Below are positions 10,107 to 25,221 of a DNA stretch of 61,409 nucleotides, one piece after another. The notes under the pieces are model-generated. The model did not search any database. It saw nothing but the letters and a program-made list of their open reading frames with translations, and had not been told where the DNA came from. This DNA is from Deltaproteobacteria bacterium (GTDB lineage Bacteria > Myxococcota_A > Polyangia > Haliangiales > J016): the NCBI GenBank assembly GCA_003696105.1, contig RFGE01000204.1:1-61409 (forward strand), written 5' to 3'. Each line of letters begins with the position of its first letter. Within the stretch, counting starts at the first letter, position 1. The translations under genes were made by a program, and so were the position numbers.

Positions 10107-10451
10107 ATGAACTCGGCCGGCCCCATCGTGCGTCTTTATCGCGCGCTCGGCGACGAGACGCGCTTGCGCATGGTGCACCTGCTGGCCGCCGCCGGCGAGC
10201 TGTGCGTCTGCGAACTCGAGGCGGCGCTCGACATCCCGCAGTCGACGGCATCGCGCCACCTGCGCGTGCTGCGCGACGCGGGCCTCGTCCGCGACCGGCG
10301 CGCCGGCGCGTGGGTCCACTACCGCGTACACGAGGACTTGCCGGAGCCGGCGCGCGACGCGGTCGCGTCGGTCGTTCGCACCTTCGGCCGCACGGCGGCC
10401 GGGCGCGCCGACCTCGCCCGCGCGACGCGAAGCCGCCGGTGCTGCGACTGA
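10107..10451 (+). CDS. arsR: ArsR/SmtB family repressor
   Basis: [22 protein letters not shown]; C-terminal CC. Confidence 0.92.
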
Positions 10452-10495
10452 CGGCCCTCGCCGGCGCCCGGCGGACAAGACACGAACCACACCGC

Positions 10496-11509
10496 ATGAC
10501 CACACGCATCGGCATCAACGGATTCGGGCGCATGGGCCGGCTGGCGCTGCGCGCCGCCTGGGACCGCGACGACCTCGACGTCGTCCACGTCAACGAGACT
10601 GGCTGCGGCCCCGACGTGGCCGCGCACCTGCTCGAGTTCGACTCGGTGCACGGCCGGTGGCCGCACGACATCACCGCGGCCGACGGCGCCCTGCACGTCG
10701 ACGGGCGGAGCATCGGCTACACCGGCGAGGCCCGGCCGGGCGACGTGGCGTGGGACGACGCCGGCGTCCAGATCGTGCTCGAGTGCACCGGCGCGTTCCG
10801 CCGCCGCGCCGCGCTCGCGCCCTACTTCGACCGCGGCGTCGCCAAGGTGATCGTCGCCGCTCCGGTCAAAGAGCCGGACGTGCTCAACGTCGTGATGGGC
10901 GTCAACCACGACCGCTACGACCCGGCCGAGCACGACATCGTGACGGCGGCGTCGTGCACGACCAACTGCCTCGCGCCGGTCGTCCGCGTCGTCCACGATG
11001 GCCTCGGAATTCGCCACGGCGTCATCACGACCATCCACGACGTCACCAACACGCAGACCGTGGTCGACCGCCCGCACAAGGACCCGCGGCGCGCGCGGTC
11101 CGCACTGTTGTCGCTGATCCCGACGACGACCGGCTCGGCCACGGCGATCGGGCTGATCGTCCCCGAACTCGCCGGCAAACTCGACGGCATCGCCGTCCGC
11201 GTGCCGCTGCTGAACGCGTCGCTCACCGACTGCGTGTTCGAGGTCGCGCGCCCCACGTCGGTCGCGGAGGTCAACCGGCTGCTCGCGGACGCCGCGGCCG
11301 GACCGCTTGACGGCATCCTCGGTTACGAAGAGCGCCCGCTGGTATCCGTCGACTACCGCGGCGACACGCGGTCGGCCGTGATCGACGCGCGGTCGACCAA
11401 CGTCGTGGACGGCACGCAGGTCAAACTGCTGGCCTGGTACGACAACGAGATCGGCTACGTGCACCGCATGGTCGAGCTGGCCCAGCTCGTCGCGCGGTCG
11501 CTCGGGTGA
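10496..11509 (+). CDS. ArsJ-associated glyceraldehyde-3-phosphate dehydrogenase
   Basis: [22 protein letters not shown]; lies between arsR and arsJ. Confidence 0.92.
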
Positions 11510-12747
11510 CGGCGGTGGCGGCGGCGTCCGGCAGCGTGCGCGCCTACGCGATCGTCACCGCCTCGTACTGGGCGTTCACGCTCACCGACGGCGCCCTGCG
11601 CATGCTGGTGCTGCTGCACTTTCACGCGCTGGGCTACACGCCGCTGTCGCTCGCGAGCCTGTTTTTGCTCTACGAAGTCGCCGGCGTGTTCACCAACCTG
11701 TTCGGCGGCTGGATCGCGGCGCGCCTGGGTCTCGACCGCACGCTGCGGGTCGGGCTCGCGCTCCAGGTCGGCGCGCTCGCCATGTTGTCGGCGCTGTCGC
11801 CGGCGTGGCCGCGCGCGCTCCAGGTCGCGTACGTCGTCGCGGCACAGGGGCTATCCGGCGTCGCCAAGGACTTCACCAAGCTCAGCGCGAAGAGCGCGAT
11901 CAAGACGCTCGTGCCCGAAGGCGCGCACGGCACGCTGTTTCGCTGGGTCGCGCTGCTCACCGGCTCGAAGAACGCGCTCAAGGGCGCGGGCTTCTTCGCC
12001 GGCGGCGCGCTGCTCGCGGCGCTCGGCTTCCGCGGCGCGCTGTGGGCGATGGCCGGCGCGGTCGTCGCCGCGGCCGCCGTCGCGACGATCGGGCTGCCCC
12101 GCGGCATGGGCCGCGCCAAGGCGAAGCCGGGCCTGCGCGCCCTGCTCGCCAAGTCGCGCGCGATCAACGTGCTGTCGGCGGCGCGGCTGTTTCTGTTCTG
12201 CGCGCGCGACGTGTGGTTCGTCGTCGGCCTGCCGGTGTTTCTGTACGACCACGCCGGCTGGTCGTTCGTCCAGGTCGCCGGCTACATGGCGGCGTGGGTC
12301 ATCGGCTACGGCGTCGTCCAGGCCGTCACGCCTCGCGCGCTGCGTCGCCGCGCGGACGCCAACGACGCGCGCGCCGCCCAGGTCTGGGGATTCGTGCTCG
12401 CCGCGGTGCCGGTAGCGATGGTCGTCGCCCTGCGCACGGGCGCCGACCCGACCGCGACCGTGGTCGCCGGTCTCGCCGCGTTCGGCGTCGTGTTCGCGAT
12501 CAACTCCGCGGTGCACTCGTACCTGGTGCTCGCCTATTCCGATGCAGATGCAACCGCTGCCGACGTCGGCTTCTACTACATGGCCAACGCCGGCGGCCGG
12601 CTGCTCGGCACCGTGTTGTCCGGCGCGCTGTACCAGGCCGGCGGCCTGACCGCCTGCCTGATCGCGGCCGCGGCGTGCGTCGTCGTCTCCAGCGCGCTCG
12701 CGCTGTGGTTGCCCGACCCGCGCGCCGCCACGGCGGCGTCCCCGTAG
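11506..12747 (+). CDS. arsJ: organoarsenical efflux MFS transporter ArsJ
   Basis: [38 protein letters not shown] and [13 protein letters not shown] are typical of ArsJ; coupled to the GAPDH gene. Confidence 0.9.
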
Positions 12748-12980: not shown

Positions 12981-13892
12981 CTACCTCCGTGACGCGCTGC
13001 CGCTGTTCACCTCCCGCGCCCGCTCGGTGGCCTCCTGCGCGCCACCGGCCGCGCCCGCGACCGCCGACACCGCGGCCGCCAGCGCGCGCTCGTCGCCGGG
13101 CTGGAAGTTGTGGTGGCGAAAGCGAGCGGCGCCGGTTGCGTCGAATACGAACGACAGCGGGATGCTCGCGCCCGCGGCGTAGCGCGCCATCACGGCCCCG
13201 TCCGGATCGAGGGCCACCGGATACGGAATCCCGAGTTCCCGCACCGCCTCGTCGACCGCCGCGCGGTCGCCCGCTTCGTCGATGCTCACCGACAGAAACG
13301 CCACGCGATCGCCGTAGCGCTCGTACAGCTTCGCCAGGTGAGGTGCCTCCGCGCGGCACGGCCCACACCAGCTCGCCCAGAACACCAACACGAACGGGCG
13401 GTGGCCGATCCATGTGGCGACGTCGACCTCGCCGCCGCCGAGCAGCGGCGCGCGAAACGCGATCGCGCGCTCGGCCAACTTCGGTCCGCCACCGCTGTCA
13501 CCGCTGGCCCACACGACCCGGTACGGGCGGCCCATCTTCGCGGCCTGAGCCGCGACCGCGCGCTCGATGTCGGCGCGCGCCAGCGTCTGCCCCGGCCGCA
13601 GAACGACCGTGAACTGCTCCGTCGCGGCATCGAACCGCGCGTCGTCGACTGCGGGAAGCCCTTCCAGGGCTTCTACGACCCCGTTGGGTCAACCCATTCA
13701 AAGCGCGCCGTGAACGCGCCGCATCCCGTCGACGCGAAACGTCAACGGTGCCGCGCGGCGCGCCGCCGGGCGCGAGGCAGGCGGCGCCGGGCGCGCCGCG
13801 GCGCCGCCGCGCACGGGCGCGGTATCTTGCGCGCACGCGCCTGCCGCCAGCGCGCAGGTGGCGACCGCCGCCAACACCGGGTTCATTTGCAT
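12981..13892 (-). CDS. predicted selenoprotein: lipoprotein signal + HMA-like domain with UxxU + TlpA/thioredoxin domain (303 aa with readthrough)
   Basis: GGAGG RBS and ATG at 13892. In-frame TGA at 13700-13698 and 13691-13689 (..VDGMRRVHGAL-U-M-G-U-PNGVVEALEGLPAV..). The same frame continues to WASWCGPC and TAG at 12983-12981. Confidence 0.8.
13655..13673 (-). promoter_or_regulatory. candidate bacterial SECIS hairpin
   Basis: mRNA GAAGCCCU-GGA-AGGGCUUC. The G-containing loop lies about 23 nt after the second UGA and about 32 nt after the first. Confidence 0.6.
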
Positions 13893-14356
13893 GGTTTGAC
13901 CTCCCGCGTTCTTGTTGTCGGTACATCCTTCGATCGCCGGCTCGGCCTGCCGTCGGCGAGCGCCTCGAGGATCGGGCATCGCCGCACCGAGGCGTCGCCG
14001 TCGGCGCAGGTCGCCACCAGCTCGGCCAGCGCGCGCCGCATCGCGCGCAGCGCCCGGATCTTGTCGTCGATCTCGGCGATCTTGTGCTCGGCCGCGCCGC
14101 GCACCTCGCTGCACGCGCGCCGGTCGTCGTCTCGCAGCGCGAGCAGCTCGGCGATCTCGTCGAGCGTGAACCCGAGCCGCTGCGCGCGCTTGATGAATCG
14201 CACGATGCGCACGGCGTCGGGCGGGTACTGCCGGTAGCCGGACCGCCGGCGCGGCGGTTTCGGCAACAAGCCGCGCCGCTCGTAAAACCGCAGCGTCTCG
14301 ACGTGGACGCCGGCGGCGCGCGCGACCTGACCGGTGGTAAGCGGTTCGCCAGGCAT
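13883..14356 (-). CDS. merR: MerR-family regulator with Hg(II)-type Cys triad
   Basis: LTTGQVARAAGVHVETLRFYERRGLL HTH; RRACSEV and TCADGDASVRRCPIL provide three Cys equivalent to MerR C82/C117/C126. Confidence 0.85.
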   Translation of the reverse strand: MPGEPLTTGQVARAAGVHVETLRFYERRGLLPKPPRRRSGYRQYPPDAVRIVRFIKRAQRLGFTLDEIAELLALRDDDRRACSEVRGAAEHKIAEIDDKIRALRAMRRALAELVATCADGDASVRRCPILEALADGRPSRRSKDVPTTRTREVKPCK

Positions 14357-14363
14357 CAGCCCT

Positions 14364-14395
14364 AGCATGAACTCCGGACAGCGGTACGGAGTCAA
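14364..14395 (-). promoter_or_regulatory. MerR-type promoter/operator with elongated spacer
   Basis: TTGACT-CCGTACCGCTGTCCGGAGTT(20 nt)-CATGCT, with dyad ACTCCG(T)AC..GT(C)CGGAGT. Resembles Tn21 PmerT (TTGACTCCGTAC...). Confidence 0.85.
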
Positions 14396-14467
14396 GCCAT
14401 CGCAACGCTGACCGCCGCTGCCGGCCGGTCCCGCGGCCTCGGCCCGTCCACAGTGGACGGGCCGGCG

Positions 14468-15457
14468 TCACAGCAGCTTCTTGCGCGCCAAAAACGCGAG
14501 CAGGCCGCCGGTGATCGCCGCGGTCACGCCCCAGAATGCCGCGTAGCCCCACCGCCAGTGCAGCTCCGGCATGTTGTCGAAGTTCATGCCGTAGACGCCG
14601 ACGAGGAACGTGAGCGGCAAGAACAGCACGCTCACGACGGTGAGCCGCTGCATGATGACGTTCGTGCGGTGCCCCACCGCGGACACGTGCAGGTTCAGCG
14701 CGTCGGACAGGATCTCGCGGTCGGCCAGCAGGTCCTGCAACACGCGCTCGACCGTGCCGACCATGTTGTGCAGGTACGGTTGTGTCGCGTCGCTCACGAA
14801 CCGCGACCGGCGGGTGGCCAGGTCGGTGAGCACTGCGCGCGCCGGCAGCAGCACCTTGCGGAAGTGCACGAGGTCGGCCGCCAGCTCGCCGATCTCCGCG
14901 AACAGGTCCTCGTCGACCGCGCCGATGAGCCGCTGTTGCAAACGCGCCACCCGCTCCTCGAACTGGTCCTGCACGAGAATGTACCGGTCGAGGAGGTGGT
15001 CCCACAGCTCGTAGATGAGGAAACTCGGCGTCTGGGCGTGATGCGCGAAGTCTTCCGGCAGGTCGCGCTTGACGCCCTCGACGAACTCCACTCGGTCGGC
15101 GTGGACCGTGAGCAAGAACCGCTCGCCGACGGTCACGTCCACGCGCTGCAGCTCGAAGTCGCGGTCGCGCAGGCGACAGCCGGACAGCACCATGTGAAGA
15201 CAGTGCGGGTAGCGCGCGTGTTGGGTCGCCGGATCGCCGGCCAGCGCGTCCTCGATGACCTCCTCCGGCACGCCGAACACCTCGAGGTCCCGCGCGGCCG
15301 CGTGCAGGGTGTCCGGGTGCAGGTCCACCCAGACGAACCGCCCCGCGGCCATGGACGCGCCCGCATCGGCCAGCGCGATCGGCCGCACGGTGCGCCGGTC
15401 GAAATCGAGTTCGACCGCCCAGGGTTGTCGCCGATCGGTCGGATCCGCCTCGGTCAT
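14468..15457 (-). CDS. corA: CorA family divalent-cation transporter
   Basis: LPLTFLVGVYGMNF..MPEL and two C-terminal TM helices; start uncertain (15457 or 15466). Confidence 0.88.
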   Translation of the reverse strand: MTEADPTDRRQPWAVELDFDRRTVRPIALADAGASMAAGRFVWVDLHPDTLHAAARDLEVFGVPEEVIEDALAGDPATQHARYPHCLHMVLSGCRLRDRDFELQRVDVTVGERFLLTVHADRVEFVEGVKRDLPEDFAHHAQTPSFLIYELWDHLLDRYILVQDQFEERVARLQQRLIGAVDEDLFAEIGELAADLVHFRKVLLPARAVLTDLATRRSRFVSDATQPYLHNMVGTVERVLQDLLADREILSDALNLHVSAVGHRTNVIMQRLTVVSVLFLPLTFLVGVYGMNFDNMPELHWRWGYAAFWGVTAAITGGLLAFLARKKLL

Positions 15458-15501
15458 CGCCGGCATCCTCGCGCGCGGCGCATGCCGTAGCAACTATTCG
15501 G

Positions 15502-21066: not shown

Positions 21067-21819
21067 TCACGATGCGCCGCCGGTGTCCGGATCGCGTGCA
21101 CCGCGCCGGCGCCGGGCGCGAACCGCCGCGCCGCCGACCACGACGCCGGCGATGTCGGCGACGTCGATGGCCACTTCCGCGCCTCGCGGCGGCTTCCCGC
21201 GCAGCGCGAGCCGGCCCCGGCGCAGTTCGAGGCGTCGAGGCACGAGCTGAAGCTCCGCCGGCCGGGACCGCGAGCGCGTGCTGAATCGCACCGCGCAAAG
21301 GCGCCCGCGGATCGCGGCGTCCACCAGACCGTCGACGACGTCGGCCGCCGCGCCGAGTTCCGCCGGCAGCGTGCCGTCGGAGTCGAACACGCTCGCGATC
21401 CGATCGAGCCACTCGTGGTCCCGCGCGGCCAGCAGCGCGCGCACGACCTGCGCGACCTGTTCGAGATCGCGGTAAAGCGGCGTGTCGCGCAGCGGTCGCA
21501 GCGCGGCGAGCGCGAACCACAGCGCGACGAGCTGCATCGGTCCCAGCGGCCGCGCGGCGTCGACCGCGGGCGGCGCGTGGGCGATCCGGTAGCGCCTGCG
21601 CTGCGCCCCGGCGCGCTGCTCGTCGACGGGAAACACCTGCTCGATGGTCGCGAGGTCGCGTTCGATCGTCGACTTGCTCACGCCGAACTGGTCGGCGAGC
21701 TGCTTGACGGTGAACCAGCGGGGCGACCGCGCCAGCAGCAGGACGAGGCTCCACTGGCGGACGAGCTGCTGCGAGTCGCGGCAGCGGGGACGGCGAGACG
21801 TGGGACGTGCGGGCGACAT
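21067..21819 (-). CDS. HTH + degenerate WYL-like regulator
   Basis: LVRQWSL..LADQFGVSKSTIERDL HTH, then a WYL-like region without a clear WYL motif or WCX domain. Confidence 0.7.
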   Translation of the reverse strand: MSPARPTSRRPRCRDSQQLVRQWSLVLLLARSPRWFTVKQLADQFGVSKSTIERDLATIEQVFPVDEQRAGAQRRRYRIAHAPPAVDAARPLGPMQLVALWFALAALRPLRDTPLYRDLEQVAQVVRALLAARDHEWLDRIASVFDSDGTLPAELGAAADVVDGLVDAAIRGRLCAVRFSTRSRSRPAELQLVPRRLELRRGRLALRGKPPRGAEVAIDVADIAGVVVGGAAVRARRRRGARDPDTGGAS

Positions 21820-21932
21820 CGCGTCCAGGCTCGCAAACCGCCCGGACACGCCCGCTCCGCCGAGCCGGTTTTCCCGTGCGATCGTCGTGCGTTGCGCCCC
21901 ATCGCGGCGCGCCCGCGGCCGGCCGCGGGCCG

Positions 21933-22913
21933 TCAGGCGCCGTCGCCGTACAGCGCCAGCGCCTGGCGCGCGCGCCGGGCCACCGCTTCGCGCAGCTCGG
22001 GCGGCTCGAGGACTTCCGCGTCGCCGCCGTGCGCCAGCAGCCAGTCGGCCACGCCCTCGAGCGCCGCGAAGTGCAGCCTGCCGACGACCGCTCCGTCGGC
22101 GGCGTCCTCGACCGAGTCCGGCGGCCATTCCTCGCGCACCACCCGCGCGGCCCGTCCGGTGAACCGCACCCTCGCCTCGTCGACGCGGCCGACGAGCAGT
22201 TTGCCGGACCGGCGGTAGCGTTCGACCTTGAACCCGGACGGCACGTCGAATGCCTCGTCGGTGACGGCCACGCTCTTGATCCGCTCGACTTTGAACATGC
22301 GCACGTCGCGGCGCAGGCTGTCCCGACCGACGAGATACCACTGGCCGAGGTGCTGGATCAGCGCGTAGGGCCGCACGCGGCGGCGCGTCATGGCGTCCCG
22401 GCTCGCCGTGTAGTACTCGATGTCGACCGCGCGGCAGCGCCGCTGGGCGTCCCGCAGCCGCGCGACCCGGCCGGCGATCCCGGCGTCATCTCCTTCGAAC
22501 GCGACGCGCGTCTCGGCGGCGTCGACGGCGTCGCGCGCGCCGGCGGACATGGCGGCGCGCAGCTTGTCGAGTGCGCGCGCCGCAGCGTGCCCGAGGTCGC
22601 CGCCGCCCATCAGCGCGCGCATCGCGATCGCGAGGGCGAGCGCCTCGCTGCGGCTGAGCCGGATCGGCCGGCCGAAGTCGAGCGCGATGTCCACGTGAAC
22701 CCAGTCCCGCTCGATGTACGCGTCGATCAGATCGTCGGGGCCGAACGGCGCGCGCCCGGCCATCGTCGCCGTCTCGATCAACTCGCGCACGCGCGCGGCC
22801 GCCAGCCCCAGCTCCTGTTTGATGTCGCGCACGTGTGCGCGCCCGCCGCGCTGGCGAACGAACGCGATCAAGTTGAGCGCGTCGCGCACCCGCGCGCTGA
22901 GCCGCGCACTCAC
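21933..22913 (-). CDS. PafC-like WYL-domain regulator
   Basis: PFGPDDLID, RPIRLSRSEA, YYTASRD, WYLVG..RMFKVERI, VLEPPELR. Confidence 0.85.
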   Translation of the reverse strand: MSARLSARVRDALNLIAFVRQRGGRAHVRDIKQELGLAAARVRELIETATMAGRAPFGPDDLIDAYIERDWVHVDIALDFGRPIRLSRSEALALAIAMRALMGGGDLGHAAARALDKLRAAMSAGARDAVDAAETRVAFEGDDAGIAGRVARLRDAQRRCRAVDIEYYTASRDAMTRRRVRPYALIQHLGQWYLVGRDSLRRDVRMFKVERIKSVAVTDEAFDVPSGFKVERYRRSGKLLVGRVDEARVRFTGRAARVVREEWPPDSVEDAADGAVVGRLHFAALEGVADWLLAHGGDAEVLEPPELREAVARRARQALALYGDGA

Positions 22914-23923
22914 GCCGCCGCCCCCCCGCGACCGGCCGCCGCCCGCAGCGCGGCCACGACCCGGTCGCGCACCGACGCCGGCGACACGACGCGCACGTTG
23001 GGCCCCTGGCGGAGCGCCCACTCGACGAGGCCGTCGGTGTTGGTCACGTCCAGGTCGACGGCCGCCCACCCGTCGCGCGCGGGGCCGACCGGCGTGCCGA
23101 GCGCCTGCTCGGCCAGCCACGCGCGATCCGCGCGCACCTCGACGCGCGTGCGAATCGCCGGATGGACGCGAAACCTCCACGCGGGTTGCATCTGCCACTT
23201 TTCGAGCGAGAACTCGGGCGGCACCGAGAACTCGGGCGGCTCCGCGTCCGGATCGGCGAGCGACAGCGCGCGCATGCGATGGAGCGAGAACTGGCGAACC
23301 TCGCCGCGCAGATGGCAATAGCCGATCACCGCCCACCGCCCGCGCCAGCAGCGCAGCGCATACGGGTCGATCGTGCGCTCGGCCACCTCACCGGTGTACA
23401 GGGCGCAGTAGACGACCCGCAACCGGCGGCCGCGCTCCACCGCGTCCGCGGCCAGCTCGAGGCGGCTCGACAGGTCGGCGACCGGCGCGTGGGCCGGGTG
23501 GTTCAACAGCACCCGTTTGGCCGCTTCGCGCGCCGCGCGCCGGCGGTCGTCCGCCGTGACCATCGACAGCTTCTCGAGCGCCGCCTCGAGGTCGTCCCGA
23601 TACGGGAACTCCGGCCGGCGAACCATTCCCCGGCCGGCGATGACGAGCGCGGCGAGTTCGTCCACGTCGAAGTCGATCTCCGGCAAAAACACGTCGCGCC
23701 GATCGATGACGTAGCCCGCGCCGTCGCTGCGGTCGACGTAGCGAAGCGGCAGGCCGAGTTCGACCAGGATCTGCTTGTCGCGGGAGAACTTGCGCTCGAA
23801 CGCCGCGTCCGACACCGCGCCGTAGTCCTCTGGGAACCAACTGCGAATTTCCTCGCGCGACACCGGTTCGCGCGCGTCGAGCAACGAGGCGATCAGCCTC
23901 AGGATGCGCTCGGTTTGATCCAC
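22910..23923 (-). CDS. PafB-like WYL-domain regulator
   Basis: ERILRLIASLL, FERKFSRDK, RTIDPYAL..GRWAVIGYCHLRGEVRQF; GTGA overlap with the pafC-like gene. Confidence 0.85.
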   Translation of the reverse strand: MDQTERILRLIASLLDAREPVSREEIRSWFPEDYGAVSDAAFERKFSRDKQILVELGLPLRYVDRSDGAGYVIDRRDVFLPEIDFDVDELAALVIAGRGMVRRPEFPYRDDLEAALEKLSMVTADDRRRAAREAAKRVLLNHPAHAPVADLSSRLELAADAVERGRRLRVVYCALYTGEVAERTIDPYALRCWRGRWAVIGYCHLRGEVRQFSLHRMRALSLADPDAEPPEFSVPPEFSLEKWQMQPAWRFRVHPAIRTRVEVRADRAWLAEQALGTPVGPARDGWAAVDLDVTNTDGLVEWALRQGPNVRVVSPASVRDRVVAALRAAAGRGGAAA

Positions 23924-24090
23924 GGCCCCACCCCGCTGATGCCGCGATCGTACGCGCCGCCGCGGGCGCAGACAAGTTCGCGAACGCACAGAGAAATCAC
24001 CGATCGGCGGCCGTCGCGCGTCCGCCGTGTAGCCGAATGTGGGCGCACGTCGGGCAAAGAACCCGGCGCCAGTGAAACCACGGAGGCCCC

Positions 24091-25221
24091 ATGTCGAACC
24101 GATGCTCATCCGGCCCCAACTCGCCGCAGGACGCCCGCCCGGCGTGCCACCCGTTGTGGGAGCGCGCGGACGCGCGCGGCGCGCGCAACGCACCGACTGC
24201 GATGGCTGCATTCCGCTGGCCGTCGCGGCCGGTGCGTGACCTGTTCGTCACGCACTTCGCGGCGCTGCGCGATACGTGCGGCCGCCTTCCGGCCGCCGGT
24301 GTCGCGATCGTCGCGATCGACGAGACGCACGACCGCATCGCAGGCGCGGTCTGTGTCGAGGCGACGCCCACGCGGCCGAACGCGGCGATCGTCGGCCGGC
24401 ACAGCCGCGCCGACCTGTACTTGCCGGATGACCCGACGGTCGCGTTGCGCCACCTCGCCATCATCGTGCCGCCGTTGCTGTCGTCACTCGACGCGACCGG
24501 CATTCGATATCGCGTGGTCGACCTGCGCACCGGCATCGGCTTCGGCACCGAGCGAGACCCGGTGCTGCACTCGATCACGGCCGACGGCCCGGCGTGCGTG
24601 CGCGTCGCGGGCTACGCGCTGTTCTGCCTGCCCGCCGGAGAAGCCGCGGACTGGCCAGACGACCCCGATGCGGCATGGGAACGGTTTCCCGCGTGCCGCT
24701 ACGTGACCGCCCGCCCGCTGCCGGAGGGGCTGCCGGCCGTGCGGCGGCCGCCGCGCGGAACGCCCGCCGGTCGTCGAGGCAGCCCGCGGGACACGCTCGT
24801 CGTCGTCGGTCGCGGCCCCTTCGAGGCGCGTCGCGCGGACGTCCTCGGCGGCGGCCCCCCGGTAGGAGAGCTCGTCGTCGAGCACCGCGGCGGCGGGCGC
24901 GAGCGGCTGCTCGTGGGCGACACGGCCGCGGCCGCAGGGATCCTGCTCGGCCGCTACCCCCGCTGCGACGTCGATCTGCTGCGCGCATTCGACGACGAAA
25001 GCGTGTCGCGGGTCCATCTGCTGGTGGTTCGCGTCGGCGATCGCATGGTTGCGATCGATACGGCGAGCACGAACGGCACGTGGCCGGTCGACGCCGACGG
25101 GGCCTGTGGTTCCGGCGATGGGACGCCTCCGCGCGTCGTCGACCTGACGCCGTCGCGCACGCTCGAACTCGGCAGGGGGCACGTCGCCGTCGCGTGGAAC
25201 ACCGACGCCCGCGCCGCGTGA
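24091..25221 (+). CDS. protein with two FHA-like domains
   Basis: IVGRHSRADL..VALRHL and LLGRYPRCD..VSRVHL..DTASTNGT. The start may be 24202. Confidence 0.75.
   Translation: MSNRCSSGPNSPQDARPACHPLWERADARGARNAPTAMAAFRWPSRPVRDLFVTHFAALRDTCGRLPAAGVAIVAIDETHDRIAGAVCVEATPTRPNAAIVGRHSRADLYLPDDPTVALRHLAIIVPPLLSSLDATGIRYRVVDLRTGIGFGTERDPVLHSITADGPACVRVAGYALFCLPAGEAADWPDDPDAAWERFPACRYVTARPLPEGLPAVRRPPRGTPAGRRGSPRDTLVVVGRGPFEARRADVLGGGPPVGELVVEHRGGGRERLLVGDTAAAAGILLGRYPRCDVDLLRAFDDESVSRVHLLVVRVGDRMVAIDTASTNGTWPVDADGACGSGDGTPPRVVDLTPSRTLELGRGHVAVAWNTDARAA

Follow-up and report, generated by a model that had tools for sequence, protein, structure and literature searches.

Does the stretch at positions 12981 to 13892 of the window (by which we mean the whole 61,409-nucleotide stretch of DNA analysed) encode a single protein with two selenocysteine (Sec) residues, and what might such a protein be for? 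In NCBI nr the gene is present as two separate fragments, of 62 and 184 amino acids. We consider it very likely that the two apparent stops encode Sec, and that public annotation has split one exported protein in two.

The reading frame and its two UGA codons

The features that define the frame and its decoding are the following.

12981..13892, minus strand: whole gene, encoding signal peptide, linker, UxxU-HMA domain and TlpA domain (from the translation; 7 distinct full-length TlpA-type orthologues)
13900..13905, minus strand: ribosome-binding site GGGAGG (from the sequence; 7 nt ahead of the ATG at 13892)
13698..13700, minus strand: UGA codon 65, inferred Sec (TGA in 8 genome members and at least 33 metagenome members; Cys in P0100)
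13689..13691, minus strand: UGA codon 68, inferred Sec (TGA in 40 of the 41 member loci listed; TGC in L030)
13655..13673, minus strand: SECIS-like hairpin with an 8-bp stem and GGA loop (-11.6 kcal/mol; loop 32 and 23 nt past the two UGAs)

Translated with UGA as Sec, the minus strand from 13892 to 12981 forms one 303-codon frame with exactly two in-frame TGAs; the plus-strand reading of the same interval is not the gene. The preliminary description of this DNA had held that the two fragments of the open reading frame track share one frame, and the translation bears this out: after codon 68 there is no further stop up to the TlpA motif WASWCGPC. It had also numbered the UGAs as codons 65 and 68, which places them at 13700-13698 and 13691-13689. 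Their local context is GAL-TGA-ATG-GGT-TGA-PN, so that the protein reads VDGMRRVHGAL-U-MG-U-PN. The ribosome-binding site noted there (GGAGG) is likewise found, as GGGAGG at 13905-13900. An alternative ATG at 13886 overlaps the stop codon of an upstream merR-like gene (ATGA).

A sequencing or assembly slip might mimic such a frame. A contig from a hot-springs metagenome (one public run) spans 13601-14450 with no differences at a depth of 21.6, which argues against a slip, being, however, a contig rather than raw reads, and not independent, as it possibly comes from the same DNA source. The stretch was not found in two further runs (X2 and X3).

Relatives of the gene were collected from several sources. 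Two of 60 related genomes carry a full-length orthologue, with the same TGA-ATG-GGT-TGA and 54-55% identity in the HMA part (loci L033 and L034 are longer stretches around these same two genes, which are counted once); five weaker matches in this set are not family members. Among 400 genomes of the phylum, five have a member: three combine UxxU with TlpA, while one UxxU and one UxxC protein carry another type of thioredoxin. Two further matches there are ordinary ATPase HMA domains, and a richer profile yielded no additional member from the 401 genomes of this sample. A scan of genome contigs with Cys-based patterns gave only two loci from 208 stretches and is uninformative on the range of the family; none of six stretches from a viral scan was a member.

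In metagenomes, a DNA pattern that accepted TGA, TGC or TGT at each of the two sites matched at least 119 stretches. Since it also called for Met behind the first site and for Pro-Asn/Lys behind the second, the family is only partly sampled by it. A profile separates these matches into at least 33 members (38 bits or more, the next score being 21.6) and 86 chance matches. Among the metagenome matches listed, TGA occupies both sites in all 33 members vs 6 of the 86 non-members. The metagenome members include duplicates, and together with the 8 genome loci they yield 35 distinct 54-nt segments. In the 41 loci listed, which span 42-72% GC, both UGAs are kept in all but one, and coding conservation continues across both. 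Most of the members listed read KSKSGAT-U-Mx-U-PN, followed by a DsbD-like thioredoxin.

Homologues with Cys at these positions, which the preliminary description had proposed to look for, do occur: L030 is a UxxC form, and the database protein P0100 is a CxxC form that has the insert described below. Two database proteins begin at MGCP, matching UxxC genes cut at the first UGA. In a profile search of 1.84 billion representative proteins, multi-HMA ATPases crowded the top of the list, where 6 of the best 150 hits were family-like, and none of 373 candidates of 166-531 amino acids was a full-length Cys homologue with the HMA part of the window protein.

Six database proteins (P0070, P0071, P0140, P0158, P0174, P0175) have W-x-x-W at the two sites, as expected if the host or the family read UGA as tryptophan. 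The contigs behind all six are no longer than about 2 kb, and gene callers may pick a UGA=Trp table on short contigs; moreover, P0174 falls in the KSGA branch, where the DNA has TGA throughout. We therefore take the W-x-x-W forms, which are read from protein records, as UGA called Trp by the gene caller. In the host genome merR itself terminates with TGA, and there is one tRNA-Trp (CCA) beside one tRNA-Sec. A tryptophan reading is barely credible against this background.

The predicted Sec-insertion signal lies just 3' of the UGAs. Both loop distances (32 and 23 nt) fall within the 16-37 nt given for the bacterial SECIS consensus in the legend to Fig 2 of PMC13188914, the criteria having been checked by hand. 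Folded as a single sequence in DNA of 72% GC, the hairpin is not significant (z -1.3 to -1.6). Across the 35 segments, 80.7% of cells are paired and 39 changes are two-sided; no shuffle out of 500 scored as high and the best slid control reached 59.6%, figures that are inflated by kinship among the members and refer to a structure derived from the window's own sequence. RNAalifold recovers the central four pairs unaided. In all 35 segments the stem encodes its Leu by CTG, a codon that makes up 31% of the Leu codons downstream in the same genes. Three loci (L026-L028) break the consensus stem and form instead a shifted, nearer hairpin with a GGUC loop. The earlier claim of a hairpin at this place thus gains an 8-bp, GGA-loop structure that covaries over 35 sequences. 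In a genome-wide scan for motif plus hairpin the site ranked first of 305 filtered candidates (2411 unfiltered), a result of little weight, as the score was shaped on this family and missed two further genes of the host (on contig C160, see below). It is almost certain, judging from motif and structure, that SelB bound to one hairpin would decode both UGAs, 9 nt apart.

The host genome (5.34 Mb in 381 contigs, 72% GC, 98% complete) has selA, selB, selC (tRNA-Sec) and selD, all over cut-off, as the preliminary description had suggested checking; its selD itself contains an in-frame TGA. All seven other carrier genomes have selA, vs 244 of 401 genomes in the phylum sample. This is consistent with the Sec reading and not strong support for it, since kin are not independent. 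The outcomes earlier named as speaking against two Sec residues (no Sec machinery, homologues with non-Cys residues, no conservation across the UGAs) were not encountered.

Could the gene nevertheless be broken, or consist of a lipoprotein stub followed by a separate TlpA gene, as the two fragments in NCBI nr imply? ARAGORN moreover calls a tRNA-Ser(GGA) on the minus strand at 13615-13704, over the UGAs and the hairpin. Its anticodon is the hairpin loop itself, Rfam tRNA-Sec has no match in that region, and the call is probably false. By eye, no signal peptide is apparent at the start of the 184-aa ORF, and neither a decayed gene nor a pair of genes sits well with conservation of both UGAs and of the coding sequence across them, with Cys homologues and with a covarying hairpin. 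We regard this explanation as highly improbable, and hold with near certainty that the gene encodes a real double-Sec protein.

An HMA-fold domain joined to a thioredoxin

The protein itself divides into four recognisable parts.

13833..13892, minus strand: probable lipoprotein signal peptide ending at Cys20, with an atypical lipobox AGAC (by eye; Cys20 invariant in 3 of 3 aligned proteins)
13512..13745, minus strand: HMA/MerP-fold domain (Pfam PF00403, 25.2 bits vs a cut-off of 24.8 with U read as C, a marginal match)
13701..13721, minus strand: RRVHGAL between GM and the first Sec, a predicted beta-hairpin, 6 residues longer than in an ordinary HMA domain
13044..13475, minus strand: TlpA/ResA-type thioredoxin (Pfam AhpC-TSA and Redoxin over cut-off; top Foldseek matches ResA/DsbE-type)

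The lipoprotein signal (LAAGAC) proposed earlier stands in so far as its Cys is kept in all three aligned proteins, whereas the lipobox is atypical, with Ala at -3 and no basic N-region. Export and lipid anchoring through Cys20 are nonetheless quite probable.

Modelled with Cys in place of Sec, the HMA domain (pLDDT 89.6) shows the beta-alpha-beta-beta-alpha-beta topology with the ligand pair at helix 1, and in addition the hairpin of the insert. Structural comparison brings up HMA domains first (Z 10.0, rmsd 2.1 A over 74 residues), and the family profile aligns UxxU with the CxxC of HMA domains of solved structure, among them MerP. The idea that the UGAs occupy the positions of the metal-binding Cys residues is therefore upheld by the alignment, but the canonical GMxCxxC spacing that had suggested it is not present: GM is followed by 7 residues and then UxxU (8 in the KSKSGAT branch), whereas the spacing is one residue in 447 of 449 counted ordinary HMA matches.

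The thioredoxin carries WCGPC with Cys176 and Cys179 (13367-13356) and the conserved Pro245. A two-domain model, again with Cys for Sec (pLDDT 92.3, pTM 0.82), adds a ResA/DsbE-type fold; with PF00403, AhpC-TSA and Redoxin over cut-off and both folds modelled, the HMA-thioredoxin fusion recognised in the preliminary description is confirmed. This model assigns strand to Ser243-Ile244, ahead of Pro245, and lets the insert's strand run as far as residue 65, one residue further than in the HMA domain alone. Thioredoxins bind their partners through an antiparallel strand at the conserved-Pro loop (PMC2665069), and taken together with these strand calls this gives a hint that the thioredoxin may dock on the protein's own Sec loop.

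A thioredoxin-fold CxxC domain lies downstream in 22 of the 22 members listed that are long enough to judge, and also in L030. It comes in two different types, which suggests that the pairing of the domains matters more than the particular partner. Variants of this plan were also observed. In L055, L081, L088 and L057 a third UGA is read through into a C-terminal thioredoxin-like domain with SPG/SPT-U-xx-C, giving three Sec; L069, L129 and L153 have an extra N-terminal HMA domain with GMT-U-xxG-U, giving four Sec in one protein. P0070, P0071, P0140, P0158, P0175 and P0100 form an apparent stand-alone HMA branch with no thioredoxin, and this branch holds the sole CxxC form found.

The constant presence of a thioredoxin in members long enough to judge, and the third, UxxC-bearing domain of this kind in four loci, raise the question of whether UxxU is a redox centre, a diselenide/diselenol pair that relays electrons with the thioredoxin to repair the damage that Hg or oxidants cause in envelope proteins. 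Redox enzymes make up the majority of characterised selenoproteins (PMC13188914, section 7), and the selenoprotein SelL has a diselenide (PMC2397514). The Sec pair of the present family, however, sits at the metal-binding position of an HMA fold, and the genes around it are those of metal transport, reduction and sensing. We consider a purely redox role unlikely.

Regulator, operator and mercury resistance genes

Which metal, if any, the protein meets is suggested by its surroundings.

14390..14395, minus strand: -35 box TTGACT of a MerR-type promoter (from the sequence; the -35 of PmerT, PzntA and PpbrA as given in PMC3431237)
14372..14391, minus strand: MerR-type operator, an imperfect dyad in a 20-bp spacer (same pattern ahead of merR in L033 and L034)
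14364..14369, minus strand: likely -10 box CATGCT (20 bp past the -35; L033 and L034 have CATACT here)
13883..14356, minus strand: merR-like regulator with Cys82, Cys117 and Cys127 (best NCBIfam model TIGR02051; its stop overlaps the ATG at 13886)

The regulator scores 140 bits with the MerR model TIGR02051, below the cut-off of 150.85, followed by CueR (121.7) and ZntR (121.6). We take its C82 to be the first Hg ligand of MerR. The ligand Cys residues of MerR are printed as C89, C117 and C126 in PMC3431237, where spacers of 19-20 bp are described as typical of metal-sensing MerR promoters. A sigma-70 scanner, set for spacers of 16-18 bp, and a terminator scan found nothing. The regulators beside all six loci tested score best as MerR, in a comparison that leaves out the L088 reference, which is out of frame. 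We consider induction of the gene by MerR with Hg(II) probable on the strength of this regulator and promoter.

Neighbouring genes were scanned at 20 loci, covering 71 of 104 candidate ORFs, with the gene's own pieces and probable shadow frames left out. In six of seven TlpA-type relatives merT, merA or merB lies within about 3 kb, two of the neighbouring merA genes being cut by the end of the locus and scoring under cut-off. L034 has a MerA and L035 a MerB that exceed their cut-offs, as does the MerA or MerB beside L070; in L034 the order is merR, double-UGA gene, merTP, merA. The seventh relative has arsR and a gene resembling the N-terminal part of CopZ as neighbours. Of the 12 members with a DsbD-like thioredoxin, four have a mer-type neighbour (merA, merR twice, and a MerB-like gene). 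Mercury is thus indicated by the MerR regulator, the operator and the link to mer operons, all three of which the preliminary description had missed.

Within the window no merT or merA lies beside the gene. The host's merT, merA and merP were seen on other contigs, at the end of C371 (L023) and the start of C51 (L021), merA being split over the contig ends; no operator match was found upstream of the host merT. The same operator pattern occurs at two more sites in this genome, C160 and C290. On C160 (L022:805-2111) it is followed by two further double-UGA HMA genes. The product of the first is a lipoprotein in which GMD-U-PRG-U is joined to a domain resembling the DsbD N-terminus; it passes the Pfam cut-offs for HMA and DsbD_N and reaches 55.8 of the 95 bits required for NF041115. 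The second encodes a short protein that has GIT-U-PG-U and a leader of the twin-Arg-like kind. These two are followed by a possible outer-membrane barrel gene (by eye; no Pfam match in the part scanned). At C290:3039-4600 the third operator match precedes a second merR, and the genes after it presumably encode, by eye, a membrane protein like MerC and a small protein like thioredoxin.

Other genes in the window also concern metals or metalloids. An ars operon on the plus strand at 10107-12747 (arsR, ArsJ-associated gapdh and arsJ; NF033735 and NF033734 over cut-off) is convergent with the double-UGA gene, and with a corA/zntB-like gene at 14468-15460 on the minus strand it makes up a small metal/metalloid cluster. 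As the ars operon is convergent and was not found beside the relatives, we leave it out of the system. Further away, three consecutive minus-strand ORFs at 21678-24211 look by eye like WYL-domain (PafB/PafC-like) regulators.

These surroundings do not speak with one voice. The protein might be a chaperone or trap for another soft metal, such as Cu(I), Ag(I) or Au(I), or a shuttle in the manner of MerP that passes metal on to MerT; TlpA would then act on it as on the metallochaperone ScoI. Most of the top structural matches are copper HMA domains, although these may simply dominate the PDB. CopZ-N-terminal-like genes beside four of the seven TlpA-type relatives could point to copper, 8 of the 12 members with a DsbD-like thioredoxin have no mer neighbour in the flanks examined, and MerT-MerP fusions adjoin the genes of L034 and L026. 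The window's merR scores under the MerR cut-off, with CueR and ZntR only about 18 bits lower, but the best match is MerR at six of six loci and MerA or MerB stands over cut-off beside L034, L035 and L070. A different metal, or a shuttle, is on balance rather unlikely.

A possible mercury trap and its relation to known systems

We slightly favour a mercury-inducible, membrane-anchored diselenol trap, in which the fused thioredoxin serves as reductase. Once MerR has bound Hg(II), transcription of the two-gene unit (merR and the double-UGA gene) would start, and the product would be exported, with Cys20 as its anchor. Both selenolates would clamp Hg(II) as Se-Hg-Se in the HMA fold, the main job being that of a sink rather than a shuttle. 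Selenolates should bind Hg(II) more tightly than thiols (an extension from their reactivity towards methylmercury), and passing Hg from selenolates to Cys ligands, such as those of MerT, should be uphill; a sink is favoured over a shuttle on both grounds. Selenols are described as more reactive towards methylmercury in PMC13664848.

The oxidising envelope would close the Sec pair into a diselenide. The tethered TlpA, fed by a membrane protein of the DsbD/CcdA type, would then dock on the inserted hairpin and reopen the Se-Se bond; the host genome has a gene for a DsbD transmembrane domain on contig C96. TlpA is known to reduce the metallochaperone ScoI (bioRxiv 10.64898/2026.05.22.727170). Diselenides, according to PMC2397514, have a very low redox potential and are hard to reduce, so that a CxxC domain may be too weak a reductase; this is the weak step of the mechanism. 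The metal trap with its own reductase, as originally proposed, may hold as a whole, with certainty falling in the order double decoding, export and anchoring, induction by MerR with Hg(II), Se-Hg-Se sink, and reduction by TlpA.

Selenium in an HMA site is a kind of protein already predicted. A 2026 inventory of 119 prokaryotic selenoprotein families (PMC13188914) includes the UxxU metal-binding protein NF041115 as well as Sec-bearing forms of MerT and of ATPase HMA domains. NF041115 (UxxU_metal_bind) shares with our family an HMA-like domain with UxxU, predicted there too. The window protein scores 15.8 bits against its 95-bit cut-off and other members 17-55 bits; the model has 74 positions and no thioredoxin, and in most members tested the match starts at the first Sec, past the insert. 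The window gene is not among the four NF041115 matches in the host genome, and none of 401 phylum genomes has a match over that cut-off.

MerP (TIGR02052; PDB 1afi, 1osd) resembles the protein in its exported HMA fold, the ligand pair at the start of helix 1, the mer-operon setting and MerR-type control. In contrast to MerP, the window protein has Sec for both Cys residues, a 6-residue insert, a probable lipid anchor and a fused thioredoxin; TIGR02052 (cut-off 92.55 bits) gives no match to it at E 0.1, and relatives score 14-50 bits. Since ordinary MerT-MerP fusions often adjoin genes of the family, it appears to be an addition to MerP and not a replacement. The MerT/CopZ fusion-like selenoprotein NF045683, Sec-bearing MerT and the P1B-ATPase HMA domains with UxxC likewise place selenium at a heavy-metal site. 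They are transporters, however, and the window protein has no match to NF045683 (relatives reach at most 29 vs 375 bits).

On the redox side, the TlpA, ResA and DsbE thioredoxins share fold and WCxPC, and reduction of metallochaperones is their known job, as in the TlpA-ScoI pair of B. japonicum. The likely client of the window thioredoxin, unlike theirs, is fused to it and bears Sec, and its scores with the named families are all under cut-off (ResA 57.9 vs 170). SelL and the Prx-like UxxU selenoproteins of the thioredoxin fold also have two Sec three residues apart and are capable of a diselenide, but their UxxU lies in the thioredoxin fold itself, whereas the thioredoxin of the window protein has retained CxxC and a distinct HMA domain carries UxxU.

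The earlier statement that no protein of this architecture had been described agrees with the sources consulted. The HMA-thioredoxin fusion is absent from the 119-family inventory of PMC13188914, its Table 1 included; full-text literature searches for the motifs and the model name returned only that review, the listings of further searches showed no description of the fusion, and a term search of the main text of deep-Sep (PMC12013277) found no mention. No model of NCBIfam (June 2026) passes for the window protein or six relatives. The class of chemistry is thus known; what seems new, from comparison of sequences, is the 6-residue insert with the fused thioredoxin, in a family that is broad, not yet catalogued and linked to genes of mercury resistance, and that annotation cuts into nameless pieces.

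The host genome contains three double-UGA HMA genes behind two operators, and a relative's protein may have up to four Sec. We tentatively suggest, as a possibility with the odds against it, that the family represents a widespread selenium arm of bacterial mercury defence, consisting of MerR-induced, exported diselenol HMA proteins in which the insert would act as docking strand for a thioredoxin that reduces the diselenide or strips off Hg. If so, it would provide a natural diselenide-reducing system, and an example of two UGAs 9 nt apart read from one hairpin. It would offer compact tests of whether a single bacterial SECIS suffices for two UGAs at a distance of three codons, and of what reduces protein diselenides, a question raised in PMC2397514. 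The protein is also a predicted candidate for a high-affinity Hg binder for sensing or clean-up. Protection by selenium against mercury is known mainly from animals, in which selenoprotein P carries much of the serum Hg (PMC13664848). If the proteins of this family are induced with the mer genes and offer two selenols to Hg, they would constitute a genetic, testable bacterial version of selenium-mercury chemistry.
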